Below are positions 9,484 through 45,493 of a DNA stretch of 64,000 nt, piece after piece. The notes below the pieces were generated by a model. The model ran no database searches. It was not told the DNA's origin and was given only the letters and a program-made list of their open reading frames with translations. The stretch is taken from NCBI GenBank assembly GCA_963765075.1, contig CAVXVA010000001.1, forward strand, positions 870,075 through 934,074, written 5' to 3'. Position 1 is the first letter of the stretch; every line of letters begins with the position of its first letter. The DNA comes from an uncultured Acidimicrobiia bacterium. GTDB taxonomy: Bacteria; Actinomycetota; Acidimicrobiia; IMCC26256; JAENVU01. Both the position numbers and the translations under genes were made by a program.

Positions 9484-10251
9484 TCAGTAGTCGACGCGCT
9501 TGAGGAAGCCGCCGTCGACGGTCAGGTTCACGCCGTTCACATGCGCCGCCGCGTCGCTCACCAGGAACAGGACTGCGTTGGCGATGTCCTGGGTCGTGCC
9601 GATTCGGCCGGTCGGATGACTCGCCACCGTGGCCGCGTAGAACTCCGGTTTGGCGGTGGCGATGGTGTCCCAGTCGCCACCATCCACGAACACCGGCCCG
9701 GGGGACACGACATTGCAGCGGACCCCGTCGGCCCCGAGCACCTGGGCCTGACCGAGCGTCCAGTTGGTCATGGCCGCCTTCAACGCGCTGTAACTCCCCG
9801 AACCCGAACCGAAGTGTTCTGCACTCGCCGTCGTTCCGATGCTCACGAGGGCGCCGCCCCCGTCGGTCAGTGCTTCGCGTGCCACGGCCACGCCGCCGAC
9901 GAGCGCGACGAGGTCGACCCCGAAGTTCTTCACCCAGTCGCCGAGTTGCTTCTGGGGTTTCCCCGACGTGTTGTGCACGTAGATGTCAAGACCGCCGAGT
10001 TGCGCGATGGACTCGCGCACCCAACTCTCGAGCGCGGGCAGGTCGCCGGCATCGAGCGGGTTCCCGACGATCTGCGCCCCGGCGCGGGCGAGTGGTTCCA
10101 GCGCTGCGACGGCCGCGGCAACATCGGCCGCGTCCCGCGCTCCGATCGCGACCGAGGCGCCCTCGGCCAACAGCGCCTCGGCAATCGCGCGACCAATGCC
10201 CCGCGTCGAGCCGGTCACCAGTGCACGCTTGCCCTCGAGTCCCAGATCCAT
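9484..10251 (-). CDS. SDR family oxidoreductase
   Basis: MDLGLEGKRALVTGSTRGIGRAIA (TGxxxGIG), YSALKAA (YxxxK) and NVVSPGPV are present. ATG 10251 is preferred over the upstream GTG 10314. Confidence 0.85.
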   Translation of the reverse strand: MDLGLEGKRALVTGSTRGIGRAIAEALLAEGASVAIGARDAADVAAAVAALEPLARAGAQIVGNPLDAGDLPALESWVRESIAQLGGLDIYVHNTSGKPQKQLGDWVKNFGVDLVALVGGVAVAREALTDGGGALVSIGTTASAEHFGSGSGSYSALKAAMTNWTLGQAQVLGADGVRCNVVSPGPVFVDGGDWDTIATAKPEFYAATVASHPTGRIGTTQDIANAVLFLVSDAAAHVNGVNLTVDGGFLKRVDY

Positions 10252-31579: not shown

Positions 31580-32596
31580 TCACCAGCCGACGATGACCCC
31601 GATGATCATGCCCAAGATGAGCAACCCGCCCGCCCGGCGGGTCACGAGGAACGAATGGGGCGCAAACCACAGTGGCCACACCGGGTTCGGCACCGGCGAT
31701 TCGGCGGGTTTGGGCGCGCCGTAGACCTTCCAGACCTGCACCATCAGCGGCATCGACGCGAACACGAGCACGGTCGCGACGGGAAGGATCCGGGCGATCG
31801 CGAGCCCCACGACCAGCGCGTAGAAGGCCACGAACATCCCGCGGGTGACCTGGCGCGCCGGGCCGTCGCCGAGGATCACCGGCAACGTGTGGGTGCCGGC
31901 CGGACCGTCCCACGGCGCCTTGTCGATGTGCTTGCCCATCAGGACCGTCGTGCACAAGATCGCGTACGGCAGGGAGGCAAGCAGCACCACGGCCGGGATC
32001 GATCCCGTGGCGGCGTAGTAGACGCCACCCACCATGAGCGGTCCCCACACGATCACCACCGTGGGCTCGCCCAGGCCGTGCTTCTTCAGCCGCAGCGGGG
32101 GTGCCGTGTAGGCCGCCGACAGGAAGAAACCACCGAGGGCAAACCCCAGGATCGCCGGACCGCGTTCCGCAGTGAGAAAGATCATCACTGCAAGACACAT
32201 CAGGTTGACGACCAACCCGTAGACCGCGAGCCGGGTGCGGGTCACCACCCCCGAGATCACCGGATGCGGCGAGTAGAGGTTGCGGGGGTAGTCCTTGGTG
32301 TCGGTCCCGACCTCCAGATCGAACAGGTCGTTCATGATGTTGTTCGCCATGTGGGAGAGCACGAGACCCACCGCGGCGACGGTGAAGAGCCCCCAGTCGA
32401 CATCGGCATCACGGAAGGCGGCGAGCAAGCCGCCGAGACCCGCGGCGACCAGCGTCATCGGCAACACGCCGGCCCGGGTGAGCCACAGCCACTTCGACAC
32501 CGGGTCGAGCGTGCCCTTCGGCGGGTTGGTCGTGGCCAGGACGTACAACCACTTCTTCGGCAAGCTCTCGCGCTCACCCACCACGGCGTCAGTCAT
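31580..32596 (-). CDS. UbiA family prenyltransferase
   Basis: 338 aa, polytopic, with the Asp-rich motif NNIMNDLFDLEVGTD. Confidence 0.8.
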   Translation of the reverse strand: MTDAVVGERESLPKKWLYVLATTNPPKGTLDPVSKWLWLTRAGVLPMTLVAAGLGGLLAAFRDADVDWGLFTVAAVGLVLSHMANNIMNDLFDLEVGTDTKDYPRNLYSPHPVISGVVTRTRLAVYGLVVNLMCLAVMIFLTAERGPAILGFALGGFFLSAAYTAPPLRLKKHGLGEPTVVIVWGPLMVGGVYYAATGSIPAVVLLASLPYAILCTTVLMGKHIDKAPWDGPAGTHTLPVILGDGPARQVTRGMFVAFYALVVGLAIARILPVATVLVFASMPLMVQVWKVYGAPKPAESPVPNPVWPLWFAPHSFLVTRRAGGLLILGMIIGVIVGW

Positions 32597-32603
32597 ACCG
32601 CCG

Positions 32604-32609
32604 AGGCTA
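32604..32609 (-). promoter_or_regulatory. -10-like hexamer TAGCCT, 7 nt upstream of the UbiA-family ATG (leaderless geometry)
   Basis: The minus-strand TAGCCT is followed by a 7-nt spacer and ATG at 32596. Confidence 0.3.
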
Positions 32610-32667
32610 CCGCCGCGTCACCGACCCGTCATCTCCCTGCACGTCACCGCGTGAGAGGCTCCCCCTT

Positions 32668-33606
32668 GTGCATCGGCGCAGGGTCTTGGCGATCATGGTG
32701 TCGGTCGCGCTGGTCGCGGCGTGCGAGAGCGACACGGATTCCGGTCCCGCAACCCCAGCACGATCGCTGATCCGGTTCGACCCGATCGGCAGGGAGTCGG
32801 CCCCTCGGCGACCACTCGCCCCCGAGAAGTTGCCGGCAGGTTGGTCGATAGCCGGGGGTCATCTGAGTGAGGGCACAGCACCGCGCATTTCGGCGACGAA
32901 CAGCCTCTTCATGCCGGTGACCTCCACGGCCGATGCCGGTCCCGCATTGGTTGCGGGATACGTGAACGACGACGAAGCTCCGCCATATTTCTGTGCGATG
33001 AGGCGGGCAAACCCACACGGACCCTTGGCGTTTCCCGGGACGCTCGGGCACCCGGACATCCTCCGTTGGGGACAAGATTTGACTGCACTGCCCGTCGCAC
33101 ACACCACCAGTTCGACAGTCGGTTCCGCCAACGAAGTCTTCGTCCTGGGACGCGAGGTGTCCGATGCAGAACTTCGAAAGGCGGCAACATCCGTCCAGTG
33201 GAGCGATCGAGGTGACAACCCCCCGACACTCACCCTGCCGCCTGGCTTCCGACTGCGGGCAACCACCAACCTCGCCGCCCAGGAGCACCCGTTCGGAGCC
33301 AGCCTCGCACTCGAACGAGGCGCGTCCTCCGTGGGTATCAGCCAAGAGGATGCCAACGCTTCGGCGCGGTTCTTCGTGCGCTTCTGGTCAGCCGTCACCA
33401 AGGGTCAAAAGTGCCGGGAGTTCCGGTCCCAGCACACGAGGATCCGTGGTCAGACGATCGTGCGACTCTTCGACGATGACTCCGCGGCGAGCCGAGCCGC
33501 GGTCTCGAAGTTGTCACGCTCGCTCCGACGCGGCTCCGCCAATGCCTACTGCGCTGTTCTCCCCGACGCTCGCGCCGAGCTGGCCGAGCGATGCACCACC
33601 TGGTGA
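32668..33606 (+). CDS. Hypothetical lipoprotein
   Basis: The GTG start is followed by a signal peptide with the lipobox ...VALVAAC. No family was recognised, and GC is somewhat lower than in neighbouring genes. Confidence 0.55.
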   Translation: MHRRRVLAIMVSVALVAACESDTDSGPATPARSLIRFDPIGRESAPRRPLAPEKLPAGWSIAGGHLSEGTAPRISATNSLFMPVTSTADAGPALVAGYVNDDEAPPYFCAMRRANPHGPLAFPGTLGHPDILRWGQDLTALPVAHTTSSTVGSANEVFVLGREVSDAELRKAATSVQWSDRGDNPPTLTLPPGFRLRATTNLAAQEHPFGASLALERGASSVGISQEDANASARFFVRFWSAVTKGQKCREFRSQHTRIRGQTIVRLFDDDSAASRAAVSKLSRSLRRGSANAYCAVLPDARAELAERCTTW

Positions 33607-33619
33607 CCCGTCGCCGCAC

Positions 33620-34177
33620 TCAGCCGCCGTAGTTCATACGGGTGTCACTCATACCCAGGACCGGCGTGTCCTCGTCCTTGAGGAAATGGCAGTCGACGAC
33701 CTCGCCGGCGAAGAAGGTGTGGTTGCCGATCTCCATGCGGTCACGGAGTTCGCAGTCGAGGAACGCGACCGACTGCGTCAACACGGGCGCGCCGGTCGTG
33801 TGCTCCTCGTACGCGAACCCGTTGAGGGTCTTCGCATCCAGATCGACGTCGACCGGTTTGGTGAACTTGCGCACGATCGCGCGGTCTTCCTGATCGATGA
33901 GACACACACTGAAGACCTGGCCCGCCTCGATGAGTTCGTGCGTGAAGGCGTCGCGTTCGATGCCGACACCGACCCACTTCGGATCGAAGCTCAGTTGGGT
34001 GACCCAGTTCGTGGTCATGCCGTTGCGGCGGTCGCCCCTGTCGGTGCTCCCGACCACGTAGAGACCCGACGGCATCTTCCACAGCACCCGCCGCCGCAAC
34101 TTGTCGTACTCGATCTGATCGTCAGCAGAACTCACCCGCGCGGGGTAGGGCCCGACCGGCCCGTCTTTGGTTGCCAT
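33620..34177 (-). CDS. Flavin reductase family protein
   Basis: ...LWKMPSGLYVVGS...NGMTTNWVTQLSFDPKWVGVGI... is present. ATG 34177 was chosen inside the longer ORF. Confidence 0.85.
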   Translation of the reverse strand: MATKDGPVGPYPARVSSADDQIEYDKLRRRVLWKMPSGLYVVGSTDRGDRRNGMTTNWVTQLSFDPKWVGVGIERDAFTHELIEAGQVFSVCLIDQEDRAIVRKFTKPVDVDLDAKTLNGFAYEEHTTGAPVLTQSVAFLDCELRDRMEIGNHTFFAGEVVDCHFLKDEDTPVLGMSDTRMNYGG

Positions 34178-34183
34178 CGCCTC

Positions 34184-34189
34184 AGGGTA
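34184..34189 (-). promoter_or_regulatory. -10-like hexamer TACCCT, 6 nt upstream of the flavin reductase ATG (leaderless geometry)
   Basis: The minus-strand TACCCT is followed by a 6-nt spacer and ATG at 34177. Confidence 0.3.
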
Positions 34190-34302
34190 GGCACACCGCA
34201 GATCGGTCGAGGATGCGCTCGACGAGTTTCGGTGCAACGATCGGGTCGACCCCGAGACAACACCCTCATCTGATCGACGGGCAGGATCGAGGAGGCACAG
34301 CC

Positions 34303-35913
34303 ATGGACATGGTGAAGATCGCAACCTGGAGCGAGATTCCCGACCGCGAACCCATCGGCGTCACCGTCGAAGGCATCGACCTGGTGATCGTCCGCCAGGA
34401 CGATGAGCACTCCGTGCTCTACGGCCGGTGCCTCCACCGGGGCGCGCTCCTCGCCGACGGCCACATCGAGGGTGAGGACCTCATCTGTGGTGTCCACGGC
34501 TGGGACTACCGCATCGAGTCCGGCGTCAGCGCCTACAACAACGCCGAGGCGCTCGAGAAGTTCACCAGCGCGGTCGAAGGCGACGACCTCTTCGTGAACC
34601 GCACCGAGGTGTTGCAGTTCGCGATGCGTCACCCGCAGCCGTACACGCCCGACGTGTACCAGGGCTACTACCAAGACCCACACATGGTGCCGGAAGAACC
34701 GTTCGTCGCCTACATCCACGAGCTCGCGGGCAACGGTCTCACCAAGACCGGCCACCACGGTCCGCTCGGGGCGATGGGCGTGCCGCGCGACGAGCTACCG
34801 AAGTGGGACCACATCCAGTTCGTGACCGCGCAGCTCGCGCGGCTCCCTCACCTCGACGACGAGCCCGTCGGCACCGAGGTCTGCATCGGCCCGAATGCCG
34901 ACAAGCCGCTGTGGCTCGACATCCCGCTGTTCGTGTCGGACATGAGCTTCGGCGCGCTCTCCGAAGAAGCGAAGACCGCGTTGGCCCGCGGTGCCGAGCT
35001 CGCGGGCACCGGCATCTGTTCCGGCGAGGGCGGGATGCTGCCCGAAGAGCAAGCTGCGAACAGTCGGTACTTCTACGAGCTCGCCTCGGCCCGGTTCGGC
35101 TGGAACTGGGACGCGCTGAAGAAGGTGCAGGCATTCCACTTCAAGGGCGGCCAGGGCGCGAAGACCGGGACGGGCGGCCATCTTCCGGGCGACAAGGTGG
35201 TCGGCAAGATCGCCGAGGTGCGGGGCCTCCCCGAAGGCACCGCCGCCATCTCACCCGCGACGTTCCCGGACTGGCATTCGGTCGACGACTTCCGGCGGTT
35301 CGCCGACGATGTGCGCGAACAGTCGGGTGGGATCCCGATCGGGTTCAAACTCTCGGCCCAACACATCGAGGAAGACCTCGACGCAGCCCTCGCCATCGGC
35401 GTCGACTACGTCATCCTCGACGGTCGCGGCGGCGGGACCGGCGCGGCGCCGCTGTTGTTCCGGGACAACATCTCGGTGCCGACCATCCCCGCCCTGGCCC
35501 GCGCCCGTCGCCATCTCGACCGGCGGAACCGTCGCGACATCACGTTGGTCGCGACCGGCGGGCTGCGCCACGCGCCCGATTTCGCCAAGGCCCTCGCCCT
35601 CGGTGCCGACGCCGTGGCCGTCGCCAACTCGGCGATCCAAGCCATCGGCTGTCTCGGGATGCGCGCCTGCAACACCAACAACTGCCCCGTCGGAATCGCG
35701 ACCCAGAAGCCGCATCTGCGCGCCCGGCTCCCGGTCGACGAGGCCGCCGAACGACTCAACCGGTTCCTTCGGGCGACCGTGGAGCTGATGCAGATCCTCG
35801 CTCGTGCCTGTGGCCACACTCATCTGCGCGAGTTCTCGGCCGACGACCTCACCACGTTCGACCGTGAGATGGCCCACCTCACCGGCATCGCCTACGGCGG
35901 GGTAATGCTGTGA
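34303..35913 (+). CDS. Rieske [2Fe-2S] domain fused to a glutamate-synthase domain-2-like FMN/Fe-S oxidoreductase
   Basis: The N-terminus is CLHRGALL...CGVHGWDY. GltB-FMN-domain motifs follow: GGQGAKTGTGGHLPG, VILDGRGGGTGAAP and CLGMRACNTNNCPVGIATQ. GAGGAGG lies 9 nt before the ATG. Confidence 0.85.
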   Translation: MDMVKIATWSEIPDREPIGVTVEGIDLVIVRQDDEHSVLYGRCLHRGALLADGHIEGEDLICGVHGWDYRIESGVSAYNNAEALEKFTSAVEGDDLFVNRTEVLQFAMRHPQPYTPDVYQGYYQDPHMVPEEPFVAYIHELAGNGLTKTGHHGPLGAMGVPRDELPKWDHIQFVTAQLARLPHLDDEPVGTEVCIGPNADKPLWLDIPLFVSDMSFGALSEEAKTALARGAELAGTGICSGEGGMLPEEQAANSRYFYELASARFGWNWDALKKVQAFHFKGGQGAKTGTGGHLPGDKVVGKIAEVRGLPEGTAAISPATFPDWHSVDDFRRFADDVREQSGGIPIGFKLSAQHIEEDLDAALAIGVDYVILDGRGGGTGAAPLLFRDNISVPTIPALARARRHLDRRNRRDITLVATGGLRHAPDFAKALALGADAVAVANSAIQAIGCLGMRACNTNNCPVGIATQKPHLRARLPVDEAAERLNRFLRATVELMQILARACGHTHLREFSADDLTTFDREMAHLTGIAYGGVML

Positions 35914-36028
35914 AAGACACCACTTGCCGGTCGCTCCGCTCGCACTCCGTCCCGTTGTCGAGGCCGGGGCTCGCTGCGCGACTGCTCGCCTCTTCTCGTT
36001 CCTCGCTCCGGCTCGGAGGTCGTCGACC

Positions 36029-37990
36029 ATGACCCGCGACTCCAATGACCACACGCTGACGTTTCACAAGGTGGCGGAGTTGGATGATCTGCCGGATGGG
36101 CGGGTGCGGACGGTGCTGGCGGGCAAGCACTCGATCGCGTTGACTCGGGTCGGCGACCAGTACGGCGCGCTCGACAACCACTGCCCGCACCAGGGCGGAC
36201 CGCTCGGCGAAGGTTCGATCGAGAAAGGGATGCTGCGCTGCCCCTGGCACGGGTACGACTACGACCCGCTCACCGGAACTCCCCCATCGGGCTTCTCCGA
36301 CGCGCCGGCCTGCTACCCACTCGAAGTCCGCGCCGACGGTATCTATGTCGGCCTCCCGGCCGATCATCCGCACGAGCGGACCGTCTCGGATGTCATGGTC
36401 GAGACGATGGTCGAGTGGGGCGTCACCCACGTATTCGGCATGGTCGGACACTCCAACCTCGGATTCGCCGACGCGATGCGGCGCGCCGAAGTCGCCGGTG
36501 ACCTCACCTTCGTCGGGATCCGCCACGAAGGTGCCGCCGCGTTCGCGGCGTCGGCCTACGGCAAGCTCACCGGTCGGCCGGCCGCGTGCTTCGCGATCGC
36601 CGGCCCGGGATCGACGAACTTGCTCACGGGCCTCTACGACGCGAAGGCCGACCGCGCACCGGTGCTCGCGATCTCGGGTCAGGTGCCTTCGAAGGTACTC
36701 GGGCGGGGCGCGTTCCAGGATGTGGATCTCAACGCGGCGTTCGCCGCGGTGTCGTCCTACTCCAAGACCGTGCTCCCTGATTCGGACCATGCCGAGTTGA
36801 TGACACTCGCACTGAAACACGCGACCGTCCAGCGTGAGGTCGCGCACCTCGTGTTCCCCGACGAGGTACAGGAGAAGGTCGTCGGTGACTCGCCGCGCCC
36901 ATCCTCACCCGTCGGGCGCGTGGCCGATACGCAGATCGCTCCCCCCGCCGACGCGCTCCAGCGCGCACTCGACCTCATCGAGTCGGCGCGGCGACCGGTG
37001 ATCGTGGTCGGCCACGGAGCCCGCTTCGACATGGACGCGGTCCTCGAGCTGGCCAACACGCTCGGGGCGCCGGTGCTGACCACGTTCAAGGCGAAAGGGC
37101 AGATCTCCGACCACCATCCGCTCGGCGCGGGTGTGTTGGGGCGCAGCGGCACGCCGGTCGCGAGTTGGCTCATGAACGAATCCGACGTCCTGATCGTGCT
37201 CGGCGCGTCGTTCTCCAACCACACCGGGATCGCCTCGTACAAGCCCATCGTGCAAGTCGACTTCGACCCGATGGCGCTCGGTCGGTTCCATCCTGTCACC
37301 GTCCCGGTTCACGGTCACGTGGGCGTCACCGCGCGGCTGATCGTCGAACGGCTGGCACCGGGCGGCGAACGGGTCGATCAACGGCCCGACGTCGCCGCCC
37401 GCTGGGAGATCTGGCGGGCCGAGAAGGCGCGCCGGGTGGCCGACGACCGCGGGCTCGGAGTGTCGTCTGCGGCGATCTTCGACGCGATGAACCGGCACGT
37501 GCCGACCGACGCGGTGATGACCGTCGACGTCGGGAACCAGGCCTACTCGTTCGGTCGCTACTTCGAATGCACCGCACAGTCGGTGCTGATGTCGGGCTAC
37601 CTCGGTTCGATCGGATTCGGCTTCCCCGCGGCAATGGGTGCCTGGGCGGCCGTGGGCGACACCCGCCCAATCGTCGCGGTGACCGGCGACGGCGGGTTCG
37701 GTCAGTACCTTGCCGAGCTCACCACGGCCGTGAAGTACAACATGCCGATCACCCACGTGCTGCTCGACAACGCATCGCTCGGCAAGATCACGAAGGAGCA
37801 ACGGGCCGCGGAGTACGAGGTGTGGCACACCGATCTCCTGAACCCGGACTTCGCGGCCTACGCCGAGTTGTGCGGGGCGATGGGTCTCCGGGTCGATCGG
37901 GCCGACCAACTCGACGACGCGTTGACCCGCGCCCTCGCTCACGACGGCCCCGCGCTCGTCGCCGTGACCGCAGACGCCGAACTCATCTGA
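36029..37990 (+). CDS. Rieske [2Fe-2S] domain fused to a TPP-dependent pyruvate-oxidase/acetolactate-synthase-like enzyme
   Basis: The N-terminus is CPHQGGPL...CPWHGYDY. The TPP enzyme N-domain (...GVTHVFGMVGHSNLGF...IRHEGAAAFAASAY...) follows, with the TPP motif GDGGFGQY...NMPITHVLLDN. GGAGG precedes the ATG. Confidence 0.85.
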   Translation: MTRDSNDHTLTFHKVAELDDLPDGRVRTVLAGKHSIALTRVGDQYGALDNHCPHQGGPLGEGSIEKGMLRCPWHGYDYDPLTGTPPSGFSDAPACYPLEVRADGIYVGLPADHPHERTVSDVMVETMVEWGVTHVFGMVGHSNLGFADAMRRAEVAGDLTFVGIRHEGAAAFAASAYGKLTGRPAACFAIAGPGSTNLLTGLYDAKADRAPVLAISGQVPSKVLGRGAFQDVDLNAAFAAVSSYSKTVLPDSDHAELMTLALKHATVQREVAHLVFPDEVQEKVVGDSPRPSSPVGRVADTQIAPPADALQRALDLIESARRPVIVVGHGARFDMDAVLELANTLGAPVLTTFKAKGQISDHHPLGAGVLGRSGTPVASWLMNESDVLIVLGASFSNHTGIASYKPIVQVDFDPMALGRFHPVTVPVHGHVGVTARLIVERLAPGGERVDQRPDVAARWEIWRAEKARRVADDRGLGVSSAAIFDAMNRHVPTDAVMTVDVGNQAYSFGRYFECTAQSVLMSGYLGSIGFGFPAAMGAWAAVGDTRPIVAVTGDGGFGQYLAELTTAVKYNMPITHVLLDNASLGKITKEQRAAEYEVWHTDLLNPDFAAYAELCGAMGLRVDRADQLDDALTRALAHDGPALVAVTADAELI

Positions 37991-37991
37991 C

Positions 37992-39221
37992 GTGCTGATC
38001 GACCTCGCGCGTTCGCATCGCGGAGCGGTGAGGTACGAGCGGTCGACGTCGTCGCGGAATGGCAGGGCCGATTGGAGTCGGCGCACGCCGCGACGAACTG
38101 TGTCGCGGCGTGGAACCCGGCCGCGCTCGATGAGGCGGCGGAGCTTGGATCGGCAGCGGGCCGCCGAGGGTCCCATCGGTCCGCTCCATGGCGTTCCGGT
38201 CACGATCAAGGACTGGATCGACGTCGCCGGGATGGCCTGCTCCGGCGGTGAGAGCGATCCACCGCGATCGGGTGCCCGCGCGCAACGCGACCGTGGTGGA
38301 TCGCCTCCGAGCCGCCGGTGCTGTCGTGCTCGCGAAGACCGCGGTCCAGGTCGACAGCGAACTCTTCGGTGTCGTCCGCCACCCGCTCGCGCCGGATCGG
38401 TCACCGGGCGGGTCCAGCAGTGGCGAGTGTGCGGCGGTCGGTGCTGGCGGATCGCCCGTCGGATTCGGCAGCGATTCCGGCGGCAGCATCCGCGTTCCCG
38501 CCGCGTGGTGCGGGGTCGCCGGGCTCAAGCCGTCGGCGGGCCGAGTGTCGACCGTCGGGCACTTCCCCCATGCGGGCGAGCGGCTCGACGGCCGCACCCA
38601 GATCGGCCCCATCGCTTTGTCGGTCCGCGAACTCGCCGCGGTCCTGCCGATCATCGCCGGGCCCGACGGCCTCGATGCCGGACTCGCGCCGGTGCCACTC
38701 GGCGAACCGAGCGCCGTGTCGATCCGCGGCCTGCGCGTCGGGTGGGCGTTCGACGCCGCCGTCGAGACGCACGGGCCCATCGTCGACGCCGTGCATCGCG
38801 CCGTCGACACGCTCATCGCGAGTGGCGCCCAGCCCGCGGGTGTAGTCCCTCAGCACTTCGACGAGGCCATGACGGTCACGCTCGGCTATTGGCAGCGACG
38901 GGCCGGCCGGACTCTCCGGTTGGGACGTCGACGCCCACTTCGGGGCGTGGGATCGGTATCGACATCCGCATGCTCCGCGCCCATGCCGATGTCGACGTGG
39001 TCGTGATGCCGGCGACTACGGACCCGGCGCCGTTGCACCGCGAGATGACCGTCGAGGACTACCGGTACACGCTTCCCGCGAGCCTCACCGGCGCGCCCGC
39101 AGTGGTCTTCCCCATGGGTTCGGCCGATGGGCTACCCATCGCGGTGCAGGTGGTTGCGGCCCGCTGGCGCGACGATGTCGCACTGGCCGCCGCCATCGCG
39201 ATCGAAGCCGCACACCCATGA
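37992..39221 (+). pseudogene. Amidase (amidase-signature family) disrupted by at least five frameshifts
   Basis: Conserved amidase segments are spread over all three frames:
- LIDLAR / AFASRSGEVRAVDVVAEW...NPAALDEAAEL
- DRQRAAEGPIGPLHGVPVTIKDWIDVAGMACSGGE
- IHRDRVPARNATVVDRLRAAGAVVLAKT...GGSSSGECAAV...GSDSGGSIRVPAAWCG...LGYWQRR
- GPAGLSGWDVDAHFGAWDRY
- IDIRMLRAHADVDVVVMPATT...GAPAVVFPMG.ADGLPIAVQVVAARW. Confidence 0.75.
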
Positions 39222-39715
39222 CCGCAACGAAACTCAAGGCCCGAGGATCGGACCCATGGTCGATTGCCGCGGCCGTCTTGGCGGTTCCCGCCGCGACCGC
39301 GACGGCGTGGTTCGTGATCGGCGACCTGACGACGACCGAACCTGCTGGTGCCGACTACATCTTCCGGCAACCCGCTTGGCTCTCGGAGCACGAATCTGTG
39401 ATCGGCGTCGTGAGCATCGCCCTCCTCGCGATCGCACTGTTGGTGCTGGTTCTCCGGTGGCACCAACGCGAGACCCGAACCGAATGGCGAACGCTGACCA
39501 TCCTGTGGGTCGCCGCCGGGATTGGCATCGGGCTCACCGAACGAACGGTGACGATGGGCGTGATCGGCGCCAACATCGGCGGTGGCGCGCTCCTGCTCTT
39601 CGTTGTACCGGCAGGGATGCTCGTGCTGATCGTCATGAGCGTGGGGCTCATCCGGTCCGGGCGGCGCGCGGCCTCGCCGCCGAAAGCGGATGAGCCCAGC
39701 GATGGTCGCTCCTGA
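39218..39715 (+). CDS. Hypothetical membrane protein (about 4 TM)
   Basis: 165 aa with high GC3. The ATG overlaps the amidase stop (ATGA). No family was recognised. Confidence 0.6.
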   Translation: MTATKLKARGSDPWSIAAAVLAVPAATATAWFVIGDLTTTEPAGADYIFRQPAWLSEHESVIGVVSIALLAIALLVLVLRWHQRETRTEWRTLTILWVAAGIGIGLTERTVTMGVIGANIGGGALLLFVVPAGMLVLIVMSVGLIRSGRRAASPPKADEPSDGRS

Positions 39716-39728
39716 AGTCGGAGGCGCG

Positions 39729-40124
39729 TCACCTCGGGGAACGCGGTGAGTACGCGTCGACCTCGATCTCCACGAGATGTTCGGGATCGATCAGCCTCGA
39801 CACCTCCACCATCGTCGCCACGGGACGAACCGCGGCGAACACTTCGGCGTGCGCCCGACCGACGGCCTCCCAATCGCCGATCTTCACGACATACATGCGC
39901 GTCCGGACAACATCCGCGAACGACGCACCGGCCCGGGTCAGGGCATCGCCGATGATCCGCAGCGCCACCCGCGCTTGTTCCTCGGCATCGCCGATCCCGC
40001 CGACCACACCATCCACCGTCGCGGTCGTTCCCGCGACGTGGACGTGATCGCCGGCCCGCACGACCCGGCAGTAGCCGACCGCGACTTCCCAAGGGCTGTC
40101 GCTTCCATACCGCTCGATGGCCAT
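39729..40124 (-). CDS. RidA/YjgF family (reactive intermediate/imine deaminase-like) protein
   Basis: MAIERYGSDSPWEVAVGYCRVVRAGDHVHVAGTTA...TMVEVSRLIDPEHLVEIEVDA is present. ATG 40124 was chosen inside the longer ORF. Confidence 0.8.
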   Translation of the reverse strand: MAIERYGSDSPWEVAVGYCRVVRAGDHVHVAGTTATVDGVVGGIGDAEEQARVALRIIGDALTRAGASFADVVRTRMYVVKIGDWEAVGRAHAEVFAAVRPVATMVEVSRLIDPEHLVEIEVDAYSPRSPR

Positions 40125-40162
40125 GCCAACAGTGTGCTCGGCCGGTTCGCGGCGACGCGTGA

Positions 40163-41308
40163 TCACTCCAGCCGGTGCTGACTGGCGGGGAGCACGTAGA
40201 ACCAGAACGGCTGGGGTGCACCCGCGTCCTTCATCGCCTGCTGGGCCCGATGCAGCATCTTCCCGGTGACGGTCTGCTGCGCGAACCAGCTCTCGGCCGA
40301 TCGCGCGCCCGGGACGTGCTCCGAAAGCCCGGCGGCCGCCTGTTCGTAATAGCCGCGGATCGCGAGCCCGGCCGTCACCGGATTGTCGGGAATCTCGGCC
40401 TGATCCCACGGCGTGGCGTCGTCGGCGATCCGGGTGAACCCGCGGAGGGCGGCCTCCACGACGTCGGGATCGACCGCCGCCCGTATCCCACCCGATGCGC
40501 GATCGAATGCCTTGCGCAGACCGCGCATCTCGTCAACGGCCGCAGGGAGCGACGGATCGAGTCGCGCCGGCATGGGGCACGCGAGCGCAACGTCGACCTC
40601 GTCTTCGATCACGACCGGATAGGTCGCAAGCGTCGGTTCGGTCGCGTCGAGCAATCCAAACGCGGCCCGAAGCACCTCGTGTTGGAACTCAGGGTCGCGC
40701 GGTTTGCCGAGCGGCCGCCCGAGCGGGAACTGGCAGTAGAGGCCGCGCGGGATCGGCATCCGCGCCGCAACTTCGTGCATCGAGATCAGCGAGACGGTGG
40801 CGATCCCTGCGGCTTCGAACGTGTATGCGAGCGCACCGACCGTGCGCGTACAGAGCGGTCAGACGGGAGTGAGGAGGACGACGTCGGTCCCCTGCTCCTG
40901 CAAGCGATGCGCGGCCTGCGGGCCGGTGTCGTGGAGGATCGTCGCGAGGTCGGACTGCGCACCCATGAACGAAAAATGATTCGGCGCGACGCTTCCGATG
41001 GTTCCGTCGGCCGCGAGCTCATCGAGCCGATCCACCGGGTAGACGACGTTGCGGTCGAGCATCATGCCGCTGCGGTCGAGGTTCTGACTGTTGTGACTGA
41101 TGGTGACGTCGTCGCGGCCGTGCGGGAGGACCCGGTAGCCCGGGTCGAAGATGCCGAAACTGTCTTCCGACGCCAGATGCAGACCGGCGGTGGTGACGAT
41201 CGCAACTTGCGCGTCGGCGAGGTTCGGAGCAGCCGCGAACGGAGCGCCCTCCAGCTCGGGCACGGGCAGCGACGCCATCACTGCTCGCATGTCGTGGTCA
41301 GCACCCAT
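40163..41308 (-). CDS. Glycine/sarcosine/betaine/D-proline reductase selenoprotein-B (GrdB/PrdB) family protein; predicted selenocysteine encoded by in-frame TGA at 40859-40861
   Basis: Two track ORFs (40859..41341 and 40163..40780) are in the same frame and separated only by one TGA. Read-through gives ...VVLLTPV-U-PLCTRTVGALAYTFEAAGIATVSL...FPLGRPLGKP.... A SECIS-like hairpin follows the TGA. ATG 41308 is preceded by GAAGGA. Confidence 0.7.
40822..40852 (-). promoter_or_regulatory. Candidate bacterial SECIS element (selenocysteine insertion hairpin)
   Basis: In the mRNA, nt 15-31 after the U of UGA read GCGCAC-GGUCG-GUGCGC. That is a perfect 6-bp stem with an apical loop containing GGUC. 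A lower helix UGUA/UACA is possible. Confidence 0.6.
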
Positions 41309-41347
41309 GAAACGTCCTTCGCTCGTCCAGGCGGCCGGCAATCGGGG

Positions 41348-41578
41348 TCAAGCTACCCGTGTGCGTGCATGTACTGAGTCGCCGAGCACGCCAACGAAGA
41401 ACGAGGCGAGGCGAGCGACATCGGTCGTCGCGAGCTGGAAGGTCGACGCACACGCACCATCGCGCCAGTGACTCATCACGACGACGCGGTCGGCGTGATG
41501 CCAGGTGGCCCGCAGGCACGTGTCCCGAGAGTCGGCCAGAAGCATTGACGGCGAAGCGACGAGCTCAGTCGAGATCAT
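41348..41578 (-). CDS. Hypothetical small protein (76 aa)
   Basis: High-GC3 ORF ending 40 nt upstream of the GrdB-like start. No family was recognised. Confidence 0.45.
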   Translation of the reverse strand: MISTELVASPSMLLADSRDTCLRATWHHADRVVVMSHWRDGACASTFQLATTDVARLASFFVGVLGDSVHARTRVA

Positions 41579-41965
41579 GTACGCAGTATGGGCCTCCGGA
41601 TGGAGTTCGACAACCAGGAGCGCGCGGCGTCACTCGGGACGTGGAATACGTGCGGGATATCCACTCCCGCCGCCGCGATCCCACCGCCAGAACACGACGT
41701 CGGGCGCTGCTCTCACTAGGGGCAACAAGAATCAGATCGGTGAACCGACCTCGGCAGCACCACCCGCTTCGGCACGCACCCCGACGACGCGACGCTACCG
41801 GGAGCCACACCAATCTCGATGGGTGGTGGAGTCGATGAGCGTTCGTGTCGACGGTCATCAAATACCACCGCGCATCAGGAATAGAACCCGTGAGCCGGCT
41901 GGACACTTGGAAGGACTTCGCAGCTTCCGGGGCATTTGTGCAGTCTGAGGGGTGGTCTCACCCTC

Positions 41966-43174
41966 ATGCCAGAATGCGAACTGATGTTCGATACTGACGA
42001 TTTCGTTGCTGATACGGCGTTCGCAGGGGTGGCCGAGACCATCGACCGGCTCCGCAGCGAGTCACGGGCCGAATGGTGCAGCGCGGCACGATCGCAACGG
42101 GTCAAGCAGATCGGTCAGAGCATCGAGGCGCTCCACGCCGAGTTCATCCGTGCCGTTGAGGTGTGGGACGGGGCGGGTGACCACGCCGCGGAGGGGGCCC
42201 TGAGTTCGACCGCATGGCTGACCCAGCATGTTCCGATGACCCGCGCCGCCGCGTCTCGGGCCGTGTCGGCGGCGCGCATGATCCGTCGTTCGGAACCATT
42301 GGCCGCGGCCCTTCATGATGGGCGTACCACCGTCGCGCACCTCGAGCAGGCGGCGAGGGCCGTCCACCGTCGCGAGGACATCTTCGAAACCCACGGAACC
42401 TCGCTGGTCGATGCCGCGACCGACGTCAGCCCCGAGGACTTCCGCGAGTGTGCCGCGTCCTGGCGGGCAAAGGCCGACGATCTCATCGGCGCACTCGACG
42501 ATCCGTTCGACGATGCCCGGGACGAACTCATCCTCTCCCCGACCACCGGTGGGCTCGGTCTGCGCGGATGGTTCCACGCCGCGGCCGGCGTCGAGATCAT
42601 GAACTTGATCGACACGTACGACCACCCCGACCCTGTGGACGGGGATCGTCCGCCTCGCACGATCGCTCAACGTCGGGCCGCCGCACTGTACGCGTTGTTG
42701 TTCGACGGTCGGGCGCTGAGCCCGAAGCAGGTCGATGTCGTGATCGACAAGGAGACTCTTCGCGCCGAATGGACGTCGGATCTCATTCGGACGCGCACCC
42801 ATGTCGAGGGCTACGGACCCGTTCCCTGTTCGCTCATCCGCAGCTGGCTGACCGAGGCGACACTCCGCCGCATTGTGTCCACCGAATCCGAAATCCTTGA
42901 CGTCGGGCGGAGCGCCCGCCTTGCCTCTCCTGCGCAGCGGCGGGCACTTCGCCACCGCGACGGTGGGTGTGTCATCCCGGGATGTCGCCGTCCGCCCCAA
43001 TGGACCGACGCTCACCACATCGTGACCTACCTCGGCGGAGGGCTGAGCGACCTCGCGAACTTCGCGCTGGTCTGTCGGCGCCACCACCGCATGCTCGACC
43101 GTGGCTGGATGCTCACGGGAAGTCCCGTCGCCGGGTGGGAGTTTTCCTCGGCGCTCGACCAGGCGCCGCCGTAG
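41966..43174 (+). CDS. DUF222 domain / HNH endonuclease (13E12-repeat-like) protein
   Basis: The C-terminal HNH motif is RHRDGGCVIPGCRRPPQWTDAHHIVTYLGGG...LVCRRHHRMLD, with a DUF222-like N-terminus. The start is uncertain (41966 or 41984). Confidence 0.85.
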   Translation: MPECELMFDTDDFVADTAFAGVAETIDRLRSESRAEWCSAARSQRVKQIGQSIEALHAEFIRAVEVWDGAGDHAAEGALSSTAWLTQHVPMTRAAASRAVSAARMIRRSEPLAAALHDGRTTVAHLEQAARAVHRREDIFETHGTSLVDAATDVSPEDFRECAASWRAKADDLIGALDDPFDDARDELILSPTTGGLGLRGWFHAAAGVEIMNLIDTYDHPDPVDGDRPPRTIAQRRAAALYALLFDGRALSPKQVDVVIDKETLRAEWTSDLIRTRTHVEGYGPVPCSLIRSWLTEATLRRIVSTESEILDVGRSARLASPAQRRALRHRDGGCVIPGCRRPPQWTDAHHIVTYLGGGLSDLANFALVCRRHHRMLDRGWMLTGSPVAGWEFSSALDQAPP

Positions 43175-43239
43175 CGACGGCTGGGCCGAACCCTCGGGTG
43201 TCCCATGCCCACAGATTGCATGCCCCCGCGAGAGGACCC

Positions 43240-43911
43240 ATGATGGAATCAGTGAGCGAGCCGGGTGGGTCCACACACGAAGACGATGAGCTCGTCGCGC
43301 GACTTCGCGCCGGCGATGAGACGGCGTTTCGGGATTTGCTCGACCGATTCGACTCGCCGCTCCGACGCGCCGCACGCACCTACGTGGCGACCGATGCCGC
43401 CGCCGACGAGGTCGTCCAGGACGTGTGGGTTGGCGTGCTTCGGGGCATCGACCGGTTCGAGCAGCGATCGTCACTCAAGACCTGGATCTATCGCATCTTG
43501 ATGAACATCGCCCGGACCCGCGGCACGCGCGACAAGCGCAGCATTCCGTTCGCGAGCCTGGGCCGTGACGTCGAAGACGACGATACGCCGACCTTTTCGC
43601 CCGACCGGTTCCACGACGCGCAGGGCGCGCATCCCGGACACTGGTCGGCGTTCCCGACGCGCTGGCACGATCTTCCTGAAGTGCGGGCCGTGGGCCACGA
43701 GACACTCGCCGTGGTTCGGGACGCGCTCGATCGTCTCCCGCCGACCCAGCAAGAAGTCGTCCGGCTCCGCGATGTGGAGGGATGGACGAGCGTCGAGGTC
43801 TGTAACACCCTCGATCTCACCGAGACGAACCAACGAGTGTTGTTGCACCGAGGCCGCGCCAAACTGCGGGCAGCGCTCGAGTCCTACTTCGACACCGAGG
43901 GGGAAGCGTGA
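43240..43911 (+). CDS. ECF (sigma-70 family) RNA polymerase sigma factor
   Basis: Region 2 is ...VQDVWVGVLRGIDRFEQRSSLKTWIYRILMNIAR and region 4 is ...PPTQQEVVRLRDVEGWTSVEVCNTLDLTETNQRVLLHRGRAKLR. GAGAGGA precedes the ATG. Confidence 0.9.
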   Translation: MMESVSEPGGSTHEDDELVARLRAGDETAFRDLLDRFDSPLRRAARTYVATDAAADEVVQDVWVGVLRGIDRFEQRSSLKTWIYRILMNIARTRGTRDKRSIPFASLGRDVEDDDTPTFSPDRFHDAQGAHPGHWSAFPTRWHDLPEVRAVGHETLAVVRDALDRLPPTQQEVVRLRDVEGWTSVEVCNTLDLTETNQRVLLHRGRAKLRAALESYFDTEGEA

Positions 43912-44174
43912 GCGACCTGGTCGACGAGATGGCCTGCCAAGAGTTGGTCGAACGGGTCACTGAGTATCTCGACTCGGCGCTGCCCGTCGTCGATCGCGAC
44001 CGCTTCGAGGAACACGTCGCCGAATGCCCCGGCTGCGAAGAGGTCCTGGGCCAGTTCCGCGCGGTCGTCGCGGTGAGCGGCCGCCTGGCGGCCGCCGACG
44101 TCGCCGCCCTGGACCCGTCGACGCGCGGCCAACTCCTCGACCTCTTTCGAGGGAGACCTCCAGGATCCTCCTGA
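43908..44174 (+). CDS. Anti-sigma factor, zf-HC2 type
   Basis: 88 aa with the H-x3-C-x2-C motif (EEHVAECPGC). GTG overlaps the sigma factor stop (GTGA). Confidence 0.8.
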   Translation: MSDLVDEMACQELVERVTEYLDSALPVVDRDRFEEHVAECPGCEEVLGQFRAVVAVSGRLAAADVAALDPSTRGQLLDLFRGRPPGSS

Positions 44175-44182
44175 CCAAGACG

Positions 44183-44188
44183 TAGCGT
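44183..44188 (+). promoter_or_regulatory. -10-like hexamer TAGCGT, 6 nt upstream of ATG 44195 (leaderless geometry)
   Basis: TAGCGT is followed by aggttt and the ATG, with only 20 nt of intergenic space. Confidence 0.3.
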
Positions 44189-44194
44189 AGGTTT

Positions 44195-45493
44195 ATGCCT
44201 ACCCTGACGCTGAGCCCGTCCGAAGCCGCCGCCCGTCTCCGCGAGCGTGACTCGCTCGGCATCCCACTGGGGCCGGGCCAACCACCTGCGTTTCTCCACG
44301 CGCTCGGCGGACGCGACGACTGGGTCGAGCTGACCGTCTTCGGAGCGCTCCTCGTCGACCTCTACGAAGTGTTCATGAAGCCCGGCGTGCGGTACTTGTC
44401 CGGGTTCTTCGGTCCCGCGGAGCGCTTCTTGGTCGACAGCGGCGCGCGGGTGGAGTTCATTCCGGCCGACTTCCGTCGGTTCACTCGAATCGCGGAACAA
44501 CTGAACCCTCGAGTCGTCGCGACCGTCGCGTCCCCGCCTGACCGCGACGGCTTCATGTCGCTCTCACTCCACGCGGGCGCCACCATCGAGGCGATCAAGG
44601 CCGCAGGTGCGGACCCAGAACGGCTCCTGATCGTCGAGGTCAACGCCAAGTTCCCCCGCACTCGCGGCCTCCTTCCCGACTACCCCCATCGGATCCACCT
44701 CGACGACATCGACATCCTCGTGGAATCCGACCGCGACCCGTTCGTGCTCCCCGAGGATGAACCGAGTGACGTCGACCGTGCTATCGCCGCCCACGTGGCG
44801 CCCCTCATTCCCGACGGCGCGACCCTCCAGACCGGCATCGGTGGCATCCCGTCCACGATTGTCAGCCTCCTCGCGGAAGGCGACGGTGGCGACTACGGCG
44901 TGCACTCGGAGATGTTCACGACCGGGCTCATGCAGCTGCACCGAGCCGGCAAGGTCTCGAACGCGCACAAGGGCCAGTTCGACGGGCTTTCGATCACGAC
45001 CTTCGCGGCCGGGACGCTCGCGTTGTACGACTGGCTCCAGGACAACGACGAGGTCGCATTTCTGCCGGTCGACGTGGTGAACGCCCCCGACGTCATCGCG
45101 CGGAACCGCACGATGATCACGATCAACGGCGCGCTCACCGTCGACCTCAACGGCCAAGTGGTCGCGGACACGATCGGCGGTCGCCAGTTCTCGGGCATCG
45201 GCGGCCATGAGGACTTCATCGCCCAGTCCGGCCTCTCGCTCGAAGACCGATCGTTGATCTGCCTGCCGTCGACGTCGATCGTCGACGGAGTCTGCATCTC
45301 GCGGATCTCGATGGCGTTGGCACAGGGTTGGATCGTGACGACGCCGCGCCACCAACTCGACCTCGTCGTCACCGAGCACGGCGTTGCCCACCTGCGCGGG
45401 CGCACCGTGCGCGAACGGGCGCGGGCCCTGGCCGAGATCGCCGCCCCCCAGTTCCGTGACGAACTTCGCGCCCAGGCGGAGCAACTCAACTGA
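44195..45493 (+). CDS. Acetyl-CoA hydrolase/transferase family protein (4-hydroxybutyrate CoA-transferase-like)
   Basis: 432 aa with ...LQTGIGGIPS...GVHSEMFT... and ...NGALTVDLNGQVVADT...QFSGIGGHEDF.... Confidence 0.85.
   Translation: MPTLTLSPSEAAARLRERDSLGIPLGPGQPPAFLHALGGRDDWVELTVFGALLVDLYEVFMKPGVRYLSGFFGPAERFLVDSGARVEFIPADFRRFTRIAEQLNPRVVATVASPPDRDGFMSLSLHAGATIEAIKAAGADPERLLIVEVNAKFPRTRGLLPDYPHRIHLDDIDILVESDRDPFVLPEDEPSDVDRAIAAHVAPLIPDGATLQTGIGGIPSTIVSLLAEGDGGDYGVHSEMFTTGLMQLHRAGKVSNAHKGQFDGLSITTFAAGTLALYDWLQDNDEVAFLPVDVVNAPDVIARNRTMITINGALTVDLNGQVVADTIGGRQFSGIGGHEDFIAQSGLSLEDRSLICLPSTSIVDGVCISRISMALAQGWIVTTPRHQLDLVVTEHGVAHLRGRTVRERARALAEIAAPQFRDELRAQAEQLN

Follow-up and report, generated by a model that had tools for sequence, protein, structure and literature searches.

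Two open reading frames that gene callers keep apart on the minus strand of the 64,000-nt stretch analysed here (the window) form one gene of 381 codons, in which the UGA at codon 150 almost certainly encodes selenocysteine (Sec), as judged from comparative sequence evidence. We hold it to be highly probable that the complete reading is correct: a single 381-residue selenoprotein with Sec150, a PrdB-like core joined to a domain private to its family, a U-x-x-C chemistry assigned by analogy, and a likely stand-alone mode of action. From the single gene, the conserved UGA, the pairing of this codon with Cys and with a characterised Sec, and the downstream hairpin that covaries, we infer that Sec insertion is SelB-dependent. 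The features of the locus are listed in Table 1.

Table 1. Coordinates of the predicted selenoprotein gene, its parts and its downstream neighbour in the window.
Feature	Position	Strand	Basis or remark
Predicted complete selenoprotein gene	40163..41308	-	381 codons + stop; homologues align full-length, no frameshifts
Start ATG	41306-41308	-	Homologues start there too (MGADHD...)
Terminal TGA of the gene	40163-40165	-	
Shine-Dalgarno-like GAAGGA, 6 nt upstream of ATG	41315..41320	-	Direct sequence reading
In-frame TGA, codon 150, almost certainly read as selenocysteine; opens the U-P-L-C motif	40859..40861	-	TGA column, 155/163 loci
SECIS-like hairpin, 17 nt	40831..40847	-	Minimum-energy fold, pairing conservation, covariation
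Hairpin 5' arm GCGCAC	40842-40847	-	
Hairpin loop GGUCG	40837-40841	-	
Hairpin 3' arm GUGCGC	40831-40836	-	
PrdB/GrdB-homologous alpha/beta core, residues 29-219	40652..41224	-	TIGR04483, GRDB, alignment to genuine PrdB
Family-specific, mostly helical C-terminal domain, residues 223-381	40166..40642	-	Absent from genuine PrdB
RidA (Ribonuc_L-PSP) gene, 38 nt downstream of the stop	39729..40124	-	Pfam PF01042, 80 bits

One reading frame across a conserved TGA

The first-pass annotation had joined ORF 40859..41341 to ORF 40163..40780 on the grounds that both share a frame and that a single TGA separates them. This was confirmed on the minus strand, where the TGA is in frame with both ORFs and is the only stop that breaks the reading frame of the gene. 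The read-through protein of about 381 aa that had been proposed corresponds to the 381 codons counted from the ATG, and homologues align with it from end to end; the Sec residue, by the earlier count implied to be number 149, is residue 150. Both halves of the gene are compositionally like real genes, with a GC3 of 0.82-0.83 against a GC2 of about 0.5 in each (the G+C content of the window is 68%). When the 64 kb were scanned for in-frame TGAs flanked by coding-like sequence, only this codon and the one at 9484-9486 were returned. The latter was rejected as a second recoding site, being an ordinary gene-gene junction.

Conservation of the TGA extends throughout the relatives retrieved. Each of the 80 best relatives, all from distinct species genomes, carries TGA at exactly this column (LLTPV-TGA-PLCTRTV), and the residues on either side are conserved in these loci. 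A scan of metagenomes seeded with an alignment of the Cys form gave 77 readable relatives, 75 with TGA and 2 with Cys, and when all readable fetched loci are pooled the TGA is present in 155 of 163. The nearest relative is a syntenic locus (L001) in an Acidimicrobiia metagenome-assembled genome (MAG), with approximately 93% DNA identity and 97% amino-acid identity to the window gene. Differences between the two genes are mostly synonymous: 16 synonymous and 6 non-synonymous in codons 1-149, 3 and 1 in the 26 codons from the TGA to the first ATG, and 21 and 3 in codons 177-381. These counts point to purifying selection on both flanks of the TGA, including the 26 codons ahead of the first ATG. 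Given the conservation of the TGA together with this synonymous excess, the pattern is incompatible with a true stop, with a pseudogene and with a sequencing error.

It had also been claimed that non-Sec homologues carry Cys at this position, and that the TGA column should align with Cys or Sec elsewhere in the family; both statements are borne out. Full-length database homologues mostly have Cys at the TGA column (CPxC), with Gly, Ala or Ser in a few. Codons of the Cys form, checked in the DNA, are TGT or TGC (L084, L162, L164, L165 and L166); the other non-TGA codons found in DNA are GGG, GCG and one TCA, the last in L081, from a contig with a coverage of 1.7x. On the Sec side, annotated PrdB (L167 and L168), the selenoprotein of D-proline reductase, has its own in-frame TGA at exactly the position of the window TGA in the alignment. 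The column thus matches the Cys of homologues as well as the Sec of a characterised enzyme: in Clostridioides difficile PrdB, Sec151 is essential, and the U151C variant is inactive in the assay (PMC11229817). The predicted context, T-x-x-U-x-x-C followed by an FPLG segment, aligns with PrdB of Terrisporobacter and Peptoclostridium, where PrdB LLTAG-U-GTCHRS lies opposite LLTPV-U-PLCTRT of the window protein, and VPMGANAGEP opposite FPLGRPLGKP. The genuine prdB genes used here were located on clostridial plasmids of Terrisporobacter and Peptoclostridium acidaminophilum, and that of Terrisporobacter directly follows prdA and a small gene in a prdA-prdH-like-prdB operon.

A covarying hairpin downstream of the UGA

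An alignment of 80 sequences revealed a hairpin that starts 11 nt after the UGA; its stem is 6 bp and its loop 5 nt long, and 17 nt lie between UGA and loop. Positions 2 and 3 of the loop are an invariant G and U (G28 and U29 of the alignment). Across the 80 sequences 99.8% of the cells are paired, with compensatory double changes at 3 of the 6 pairs, and none of 500 shuffles matched the pairing and covariation of the hairpin. When the 40 nt that follow the UGA in the window are folded, the hairpin is the structure of minimum energy.

The covariation can be followed at the level of codons. Among 147 distinct Sec-form sequences, the stem pair 24-34 is U-A in 85, C-G in 61 and G-U in 1. Accordingly, an Arg codon CGU occurs with ACG four codons later in 85 of the 147, and CGC with GUG or GCG in 60; the exceptions comprise one CGU/GCG case that still forms a U-G pair and one CGC/GCA case that keeps the C-G pair. 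The codon preceding the ACG, GUG or GCG codon ends in U, which pairs with A, in 143 of the 147 sequences despite their G+C-rich genomes, and the remaining 4 end in C and carry a compensating G. The non-Sec forms available as controls, only seven in number (5 Cys, 1 Gly and 1 Ala), encode peptides similar to those of the Sec forms and have 2-4 of the 6 pairs left.

The encoded Thr-Arg-Thr-Val likewise constrains the G-U of the loop and several bases of the stem, and part of the conservation of the hairpin is also explained by this peptide.

The SECIS element of Escherichia coli fdhF has a minimal 17-nt upper stem-loop located 11 nt after the UGA, and SelB contacts G23 and U24 of its loop. Like this element, the stem-loop in the window spans 17 nt and lies 11 nt past the UGA, and its loop GGUCG has G22 and U23 when the U of the UGA is taken as position 1. 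Unlike the fdhF element, the window stem has no bulged U, and the commonest loop of the family is CGUGA. The stability of the fold does not exceed that of shuffled G+C-rich sequence (z = -0.11 over 40 nt and +2.1 over 81 nt); the gene itself is G+C-rich, so folding stability by itself is uninformative, and the case for a recoding signal therefore rests on the comparative evidence. A search of Rfam gave no match at the gathering threshold for the whole window and none at E <= 10 over 40700-40950. At 17 nt, the spacing of UGA and loop falls inside the 16-37 nt given for the distance from UGA to apical loop in bacteria (PMC10778597), and the hairpin has the G in its loop as well as covariation.

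These data allow other readings of the TGA to be weighed. If it were a true stop, the locus would encode two polypeptides of 149 aa and, from the ATG at 40780, about 205 aa, which is what gene callers report and how most database entries, as C-terminal fragments, are recorded; TGA is moreover the usual stop codon in this genome and ends most coding-like ORFs of the window. Against this, 155 loci keep the frame open on both sides of the TGA, the 26-codon stretch from the TGA to the first ATG is conserved as protein and under purifying selection, and no start codon is conserved for the second polypeptide, the called fragments ranging from approximately 203 to 239 aa. Furthermore, the Cys forms are single fused proteins, and the Sec/Cys residue sits within a conserved catalytic motif, making two separate products extremely unlikely. 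A pseudogene, or a sequencing error that turned a sense codon into TGA, might be suspected because the nearby amidase gene (37992-39221, identified by eye from its translation) has several frameshifts relative to L001, a sign of decay or error in the region, and because the low-coverage L081 has TCA in place of TGA. This we regard as having a negligible probability: the TGA occurs independently in 155 loci of different assemblies, the gene is otherwise free of defects, and synonymous changes prevail in the comparison with L001.

A further possibility is read-through of the UGA with another amino acid than selenocysteine, for instance by near-cognate Cys or Trp insertion, in a lineage that has lost its Sec machinery. 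Such machinery is not seen in the 64-kb window, where ARAGORN found no tRNA gene and tblastn with SelA, SelB and SelD of an Iamiaceae MAG locus (L043) found no selA, selB or selD. The same search over the window and the 80 genome loci matched these three proteins only in L043 itself, where the family gene has tRNA-Sec, selD, selA and selB immediately upstream of it, encoded on the opposite strand. Beside this complete sel cluster next to a family member, SelA is common in the Acidimicrobiia, a class in which it is abundant among the 120 SelA matches listed; none of these 120 sits on a contig of the same length as that of a family locus, an outcome that says nothing on co-occurrence. The SECIS-like hairpin, which would not persist without SelB, is intact in the window and in L001-L006 and degraded in the non-Sec forms. 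Read-through of this kind is therefore very unlikely, and Sec, in the U-x-x-C motif already predicted by the first-pass annotation, is the reading that agrees with the TGA at 155 of 163 loci, the alignment to the Sec of genuine PrdB and the covarying hairpin.

A PrdB-like paralogue with a domain of its own

The protein had been placed in the GrdB/PrdB family, GrdB being selenoprotein B of glycine reductase, and comparison with PF07355 and TIGR01917/01918 had been suggested. At the level of the superfamily this assignment stands. Pfam GRDB (PF07355) matches residues 14-147 with 24.4 bits, marginally above its gathering cut-off of 22, and the match stops two residues short of the TGA, at profile position 345 of 347. 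The best NCBIfam match is PrdB (TIGR04483), with 115.3 bits and an E-value of 2.9e-33, aligning residues 29-219 to positions 26-217 of a 238-position profile; its equivalog cut-off is 300. The GrdB-type models (TIGR01917/01918 and NF040794/5) score 30.5-46.3 bits, below their cut-offs of 65-800, and these matches begin at profile positions 203-281, thus covering the second half of the models only and leaving the N-terminal 200 residues unmatched. As the best NCBIfam matches, those to the PrdB and GrdB models, all fall below cut-off, the family is covered by no curated model. What did not stand is an identity with either namesake: the predicted protein is related to PrdB as a paralogue, has an additional C-terminal domain, lacks a PrdA partner, and is neither PrdB nor GrdB proper.

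With PrdB it shares a homologous alpha/beta core at roughly 30-34% identity (tblastn) and a Sec codon in the identical column, within T-x-x-U-x-x-C-x-R and followed by P-x-G-x-x-x-G-x-P. Genuine PrdB has 237-241 aa and ends opposite residue ~233 of the window protein, which continues to residue 381 and so has about 150 extra C-terminal residues. Unlike prdB, the window gene has no prdA, prdH or prdC neighbours, and unlike PrdB of amino-acid-fermenting Clostridia, its family is found mainly in Acidimicrobiia. With GrdB, GrdF and GrdH, the selenoproteins B of glycine, sarcosine and betaine reductases, it has the superfamily and the U-x-x-C motif in common, but it matches only the C-terminal half of GrdB, from profile position 204 on; unlike GrdB, it has no grdA, grdE or grdC nearby in the window, and its motif is U-x-x-C-T-R as against the U-x-x-C-x-x-C reported for GrdB (PMC13188914).

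The landmarks of the protein are T147-P-V-U150-P-L-C153-T-R155 and F194-P-L-G-R-P-L-G-K-P203. Residues invariant among homologues include C153, R155, the FPLGRPLGxP loop, C244, E260, Y321 and W341. The C-terminal domain, of approximately 160 residues, has no Pfam match. A search through all of 1.84 billion representatives recovered it from only 165 proteins, nearly always as the C-terminus of the same PrdB-like family; one 1019-aa match (P0246), a possible clue to a fusion, has no Pfam domain. A structure model was made from a protein 71% identical to that of the window (P0001) and not from the window protein itself. It is confident (pLDDT 95, pTM 0.93), also in the C-terminal domain, and comprises an alpha/beta core followed by a helical domain. 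Residue 150 comes after beta strand 143-147 and C153 opens helix 153-166 in this model, so that the placement of Sec150 and Cys153 appears to resemble that of many CxxC redox sites. No solved relative exists: a sequence profile search of the PDB gave no match, and Foldseek against the PDB returned none at E <= 0.001, the best being a photocobilin B12-binding protein with a TM-score of 0.29-0.33.

The neighbourhood contains no evident partner. Pfam scans of the flanks (31580-37990 and 39218-45493) identified UbiA, Rieske fusions, RidA, a membrane protein, DUF222/HNH, an ECF sigma factor with its anti-sigma factor, and a CoA-transferase; no prd or grd gene is present among the window neighbours examined. 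RidA is possibly co-transcribed with the selenoprotein gene. Among the relatives, only L001 and L002, the closest, have it next to the family gene, and it is not a conserved partner. Clustering of the flanking ORFs of the 80 related genome loci revealed no recurring partner gene, and the glyoxalase-family genes (L083 and L165) and GcvH (L166) seen beside individual members have a homologue in no other locus. In the absence of a PrdA or Grd partner, and of any conserved neighbour whatsoever, a stand-alone reductase is most likely, and membership in a pyruvoyl complex less so.

It may nevertheless be asked whether the gene encodes genuine PrdB or GrdB, whose pyruvoyl partner would be encoded elsewhere. 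TIGR04483 as best NCBIfam match speaks for this, as do the Sec column and the U-x-x-C-x-R motif common to the window protein and true PrdB, and JGI names several homologues 'D-proline reductase (dithiol) PrdB'. The scores are far from those of true members, at 115 bits against 300 for PrdB and 30-46 against 65-800 for the GrdB models; no partner gene recurs in the window and the 80 loci, whereas true prdB follows prdA; and the ~150 extra C-terminal residues have no counterpart in PrdB. The hosts, too, are mostly Acidimicrobiia, with P450s and luciferase-like monooxygenases among the neighbour genes, and do not suggest a Stickland fermenter. The chance that this reading is right is very small, and we consider it largely refuted: the window protein is not a D-proline reductase, and it cannot be the classical Stickland proline reductase.

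Proposed mechanism, distribution and significance

In the mechanism that we propose for a stand-alone selenoenzyme, the hairpin 11 nt downstream of the UGA would recruit SelB with GTP and Sec-tRNA(Sec) to the ribosome, where this complex would compete with release factor 2 at codon 150. The protein is likely to be a selenol/thiol (U-x-x-C) reductase. By analogy with PrdB and GrdB, the selenolate of Sec150 may attack an atom of the substrate, and Cys153 would then resolve the adduct to form a selenenyl-sulfide, which a cellular dithiol, for example thioredoxin, would reduce again.

A scan with one genome per species placed a relative of this family in at least 593 species genomes. The expectation that standard gene calling would yield fragments holds for the databases at large: about 99 of the 120 best protein-database matches are C-terminal pieces of around 226 aa (203-239 aa) that start just past the TGA, called "hypothetical protein" where they are named, and the other 21 are full-length forms without TGA. 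An exact look-up of the C-terminal ORF of the window gave no record. Hundreds of relatives are stored in public databases as truncated proteins. The family keeps Sec far more often than Cys.

Marine members, including some from Tara, are present in the family, and the group has very probably been counted before. In three marine surveys, "Proline reductase PrdB" ranked third in abundance among the selenoprotein families of the Sargasso Sea in 2005, with 42 Sec forms against 1 Cys form (PMC1088965); PrdB was among the top selenoprotein families of the GOS data in 2008, with 235 Sec and 110 Cys forms (PMC2398784); and a later survey put "Proline reductase" at 6.4% of marine selenoprotein genes (PMC9402790). 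As described there, this group resembles the window family in its pfam07355 assignment, its UxxC motif, a large excess of Sec over Cys and its abundance in aerobic surface-ocean samples. The marine members and the matching descriptors make it very probable that the two are the same, a match made by descriptors. The surveys file the group under PrdB, and their accessible portions make no mention of a missing PrdA or of an extra C-terminal domain. PrdB-type Sec in UxxC, and the splitting of such genes by gene callers, are long established, and genes of this kind have been catalogued since 2005.

We lean towards the view that the proteins described here constitute a distinct family of stand-alone selenoenzymes, spread over more than 590 bacterial species, mostly aerobic-looking Acidimicrobiia, in which a PrdB-like core is combined with a private helical domain bearing the invariant Cys244, no pyruvoyl partner is needed, and the reaction is a reductive one other than the cleavage of D-proline. 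If this is true, it would explain why 'PrdB' ranks so high in abundance among surface-ocean selenoproteins. Being widespread and Sec-rich, and no Stickland proline reductase, the family represents an abundant selenoenzyme of free-living Actinomycetota and marine bacteria, and finding its reaction would explain part of the selenium demand in such organisms.

Sec machinery beside the family gene of L043, and a probable read error in L081

Among the 80 genome loci L001-L080, the best relatives in species genomes, Sec machinery adjoins the family gene in L043 only. In this Iamiaceae MAG, selB, selA, selD and tRNA-Sec form a single cluster that lies directly upstream of the family gene, on the opposite strand. 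In L081, a homologue with 71% identity on a low-coverage contig, TCA (Ser) occupies the column where all close relatives have TGA; the hairpin is perfect despite this codon. The TCA is probably a read error, and P0001, the database protein derived from L081, is likely a mis-read selenoprotein.

Within the window, a single TGA at 9484-9486 (-) separates two same-frame genes, the upstream one ending in ...GGFLKRVDY. This site was rejected as a Sec candidate, being an ordinary gene-gene junction.

Gene neighbourhoods of Sec and non-Sec forms

Compared with the intact L001 orthologue, the amidase gene beside the selenoprotein gene shows at least six single-base indels; either it is a pseudogene or the assembly is poor at this spot. 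The adjoining selenoprotein gene (40163-41308) has no indel defect like that of its neighbour. Both genes of an adjacent pair in the window have a Rieske [2Fe-2S] domain at the N-terminus, in fusion with a second enzyme, which is a glutamate-synthase/FMN-dehydrogenase domain in one and a full thiamine-pyrophosphate enzyme in the other; their synteny is kept in L001 and L003-L006.

In the window, a DUF222/HNH-endonuclease gene sits a short way upstream of the selenoprotein gene on the opposite strand; in L082, the gene immediately after the Gly-form homologue is likewise a DUF222 gene. In two loci with non-Sec forms, L083 and L165, the family gene is overlapped at its start by a gene of the glyoxalase/VOC family, and in a third, L166, a glycine-cleavage H (lipoyl carrier) gene lies 3' of the family gene. 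Homologues of these glyoxalase/VOC and glycine-cleavage H genes were found in no other locus.

Features discussed and their coordinates
Feature	Location	Coordinates	Strand	Remarks
Rieske fusion genes	window	34171-35913; 35924-37990	+	adjacent pair
Amidase gene	window	37992-39221	+	
Amidase orthologue	L001	8092-9315	-	intact, 407 aa
DUF222/HNH-endonuclease gene	window	41936-43174	+	just upstream of selenoprotein gene, opposite strand
sel cluster	L043	82-4283		
Family gene	L043	4697-5851		
L081 homologue	ERZ841185 contig			contig of 1607 bp, coverage 1.7x
DUF222 gene	L082	2240-3179		
Glyoxalase/VOC gene	L083	4518-5399		
Glyoxalase/VOC gene	L165	7432-8004		
Glycine-cleavage H gene	L166	9236-9628		
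Cys-form relative (CPVC)	L169, Roseomonas plasmid NZ_CP061179.1	3722-4630		302 aa; annotated 'selenoprotein B family protein'

A Cys-form relative in Roseomonas

The gene of the L169 relative adjoins selO (protein adenylyltransferase). Its protein is shorter and has a different C-terminus; the relative seems to represent a further stand-alone branch of the superfamily.
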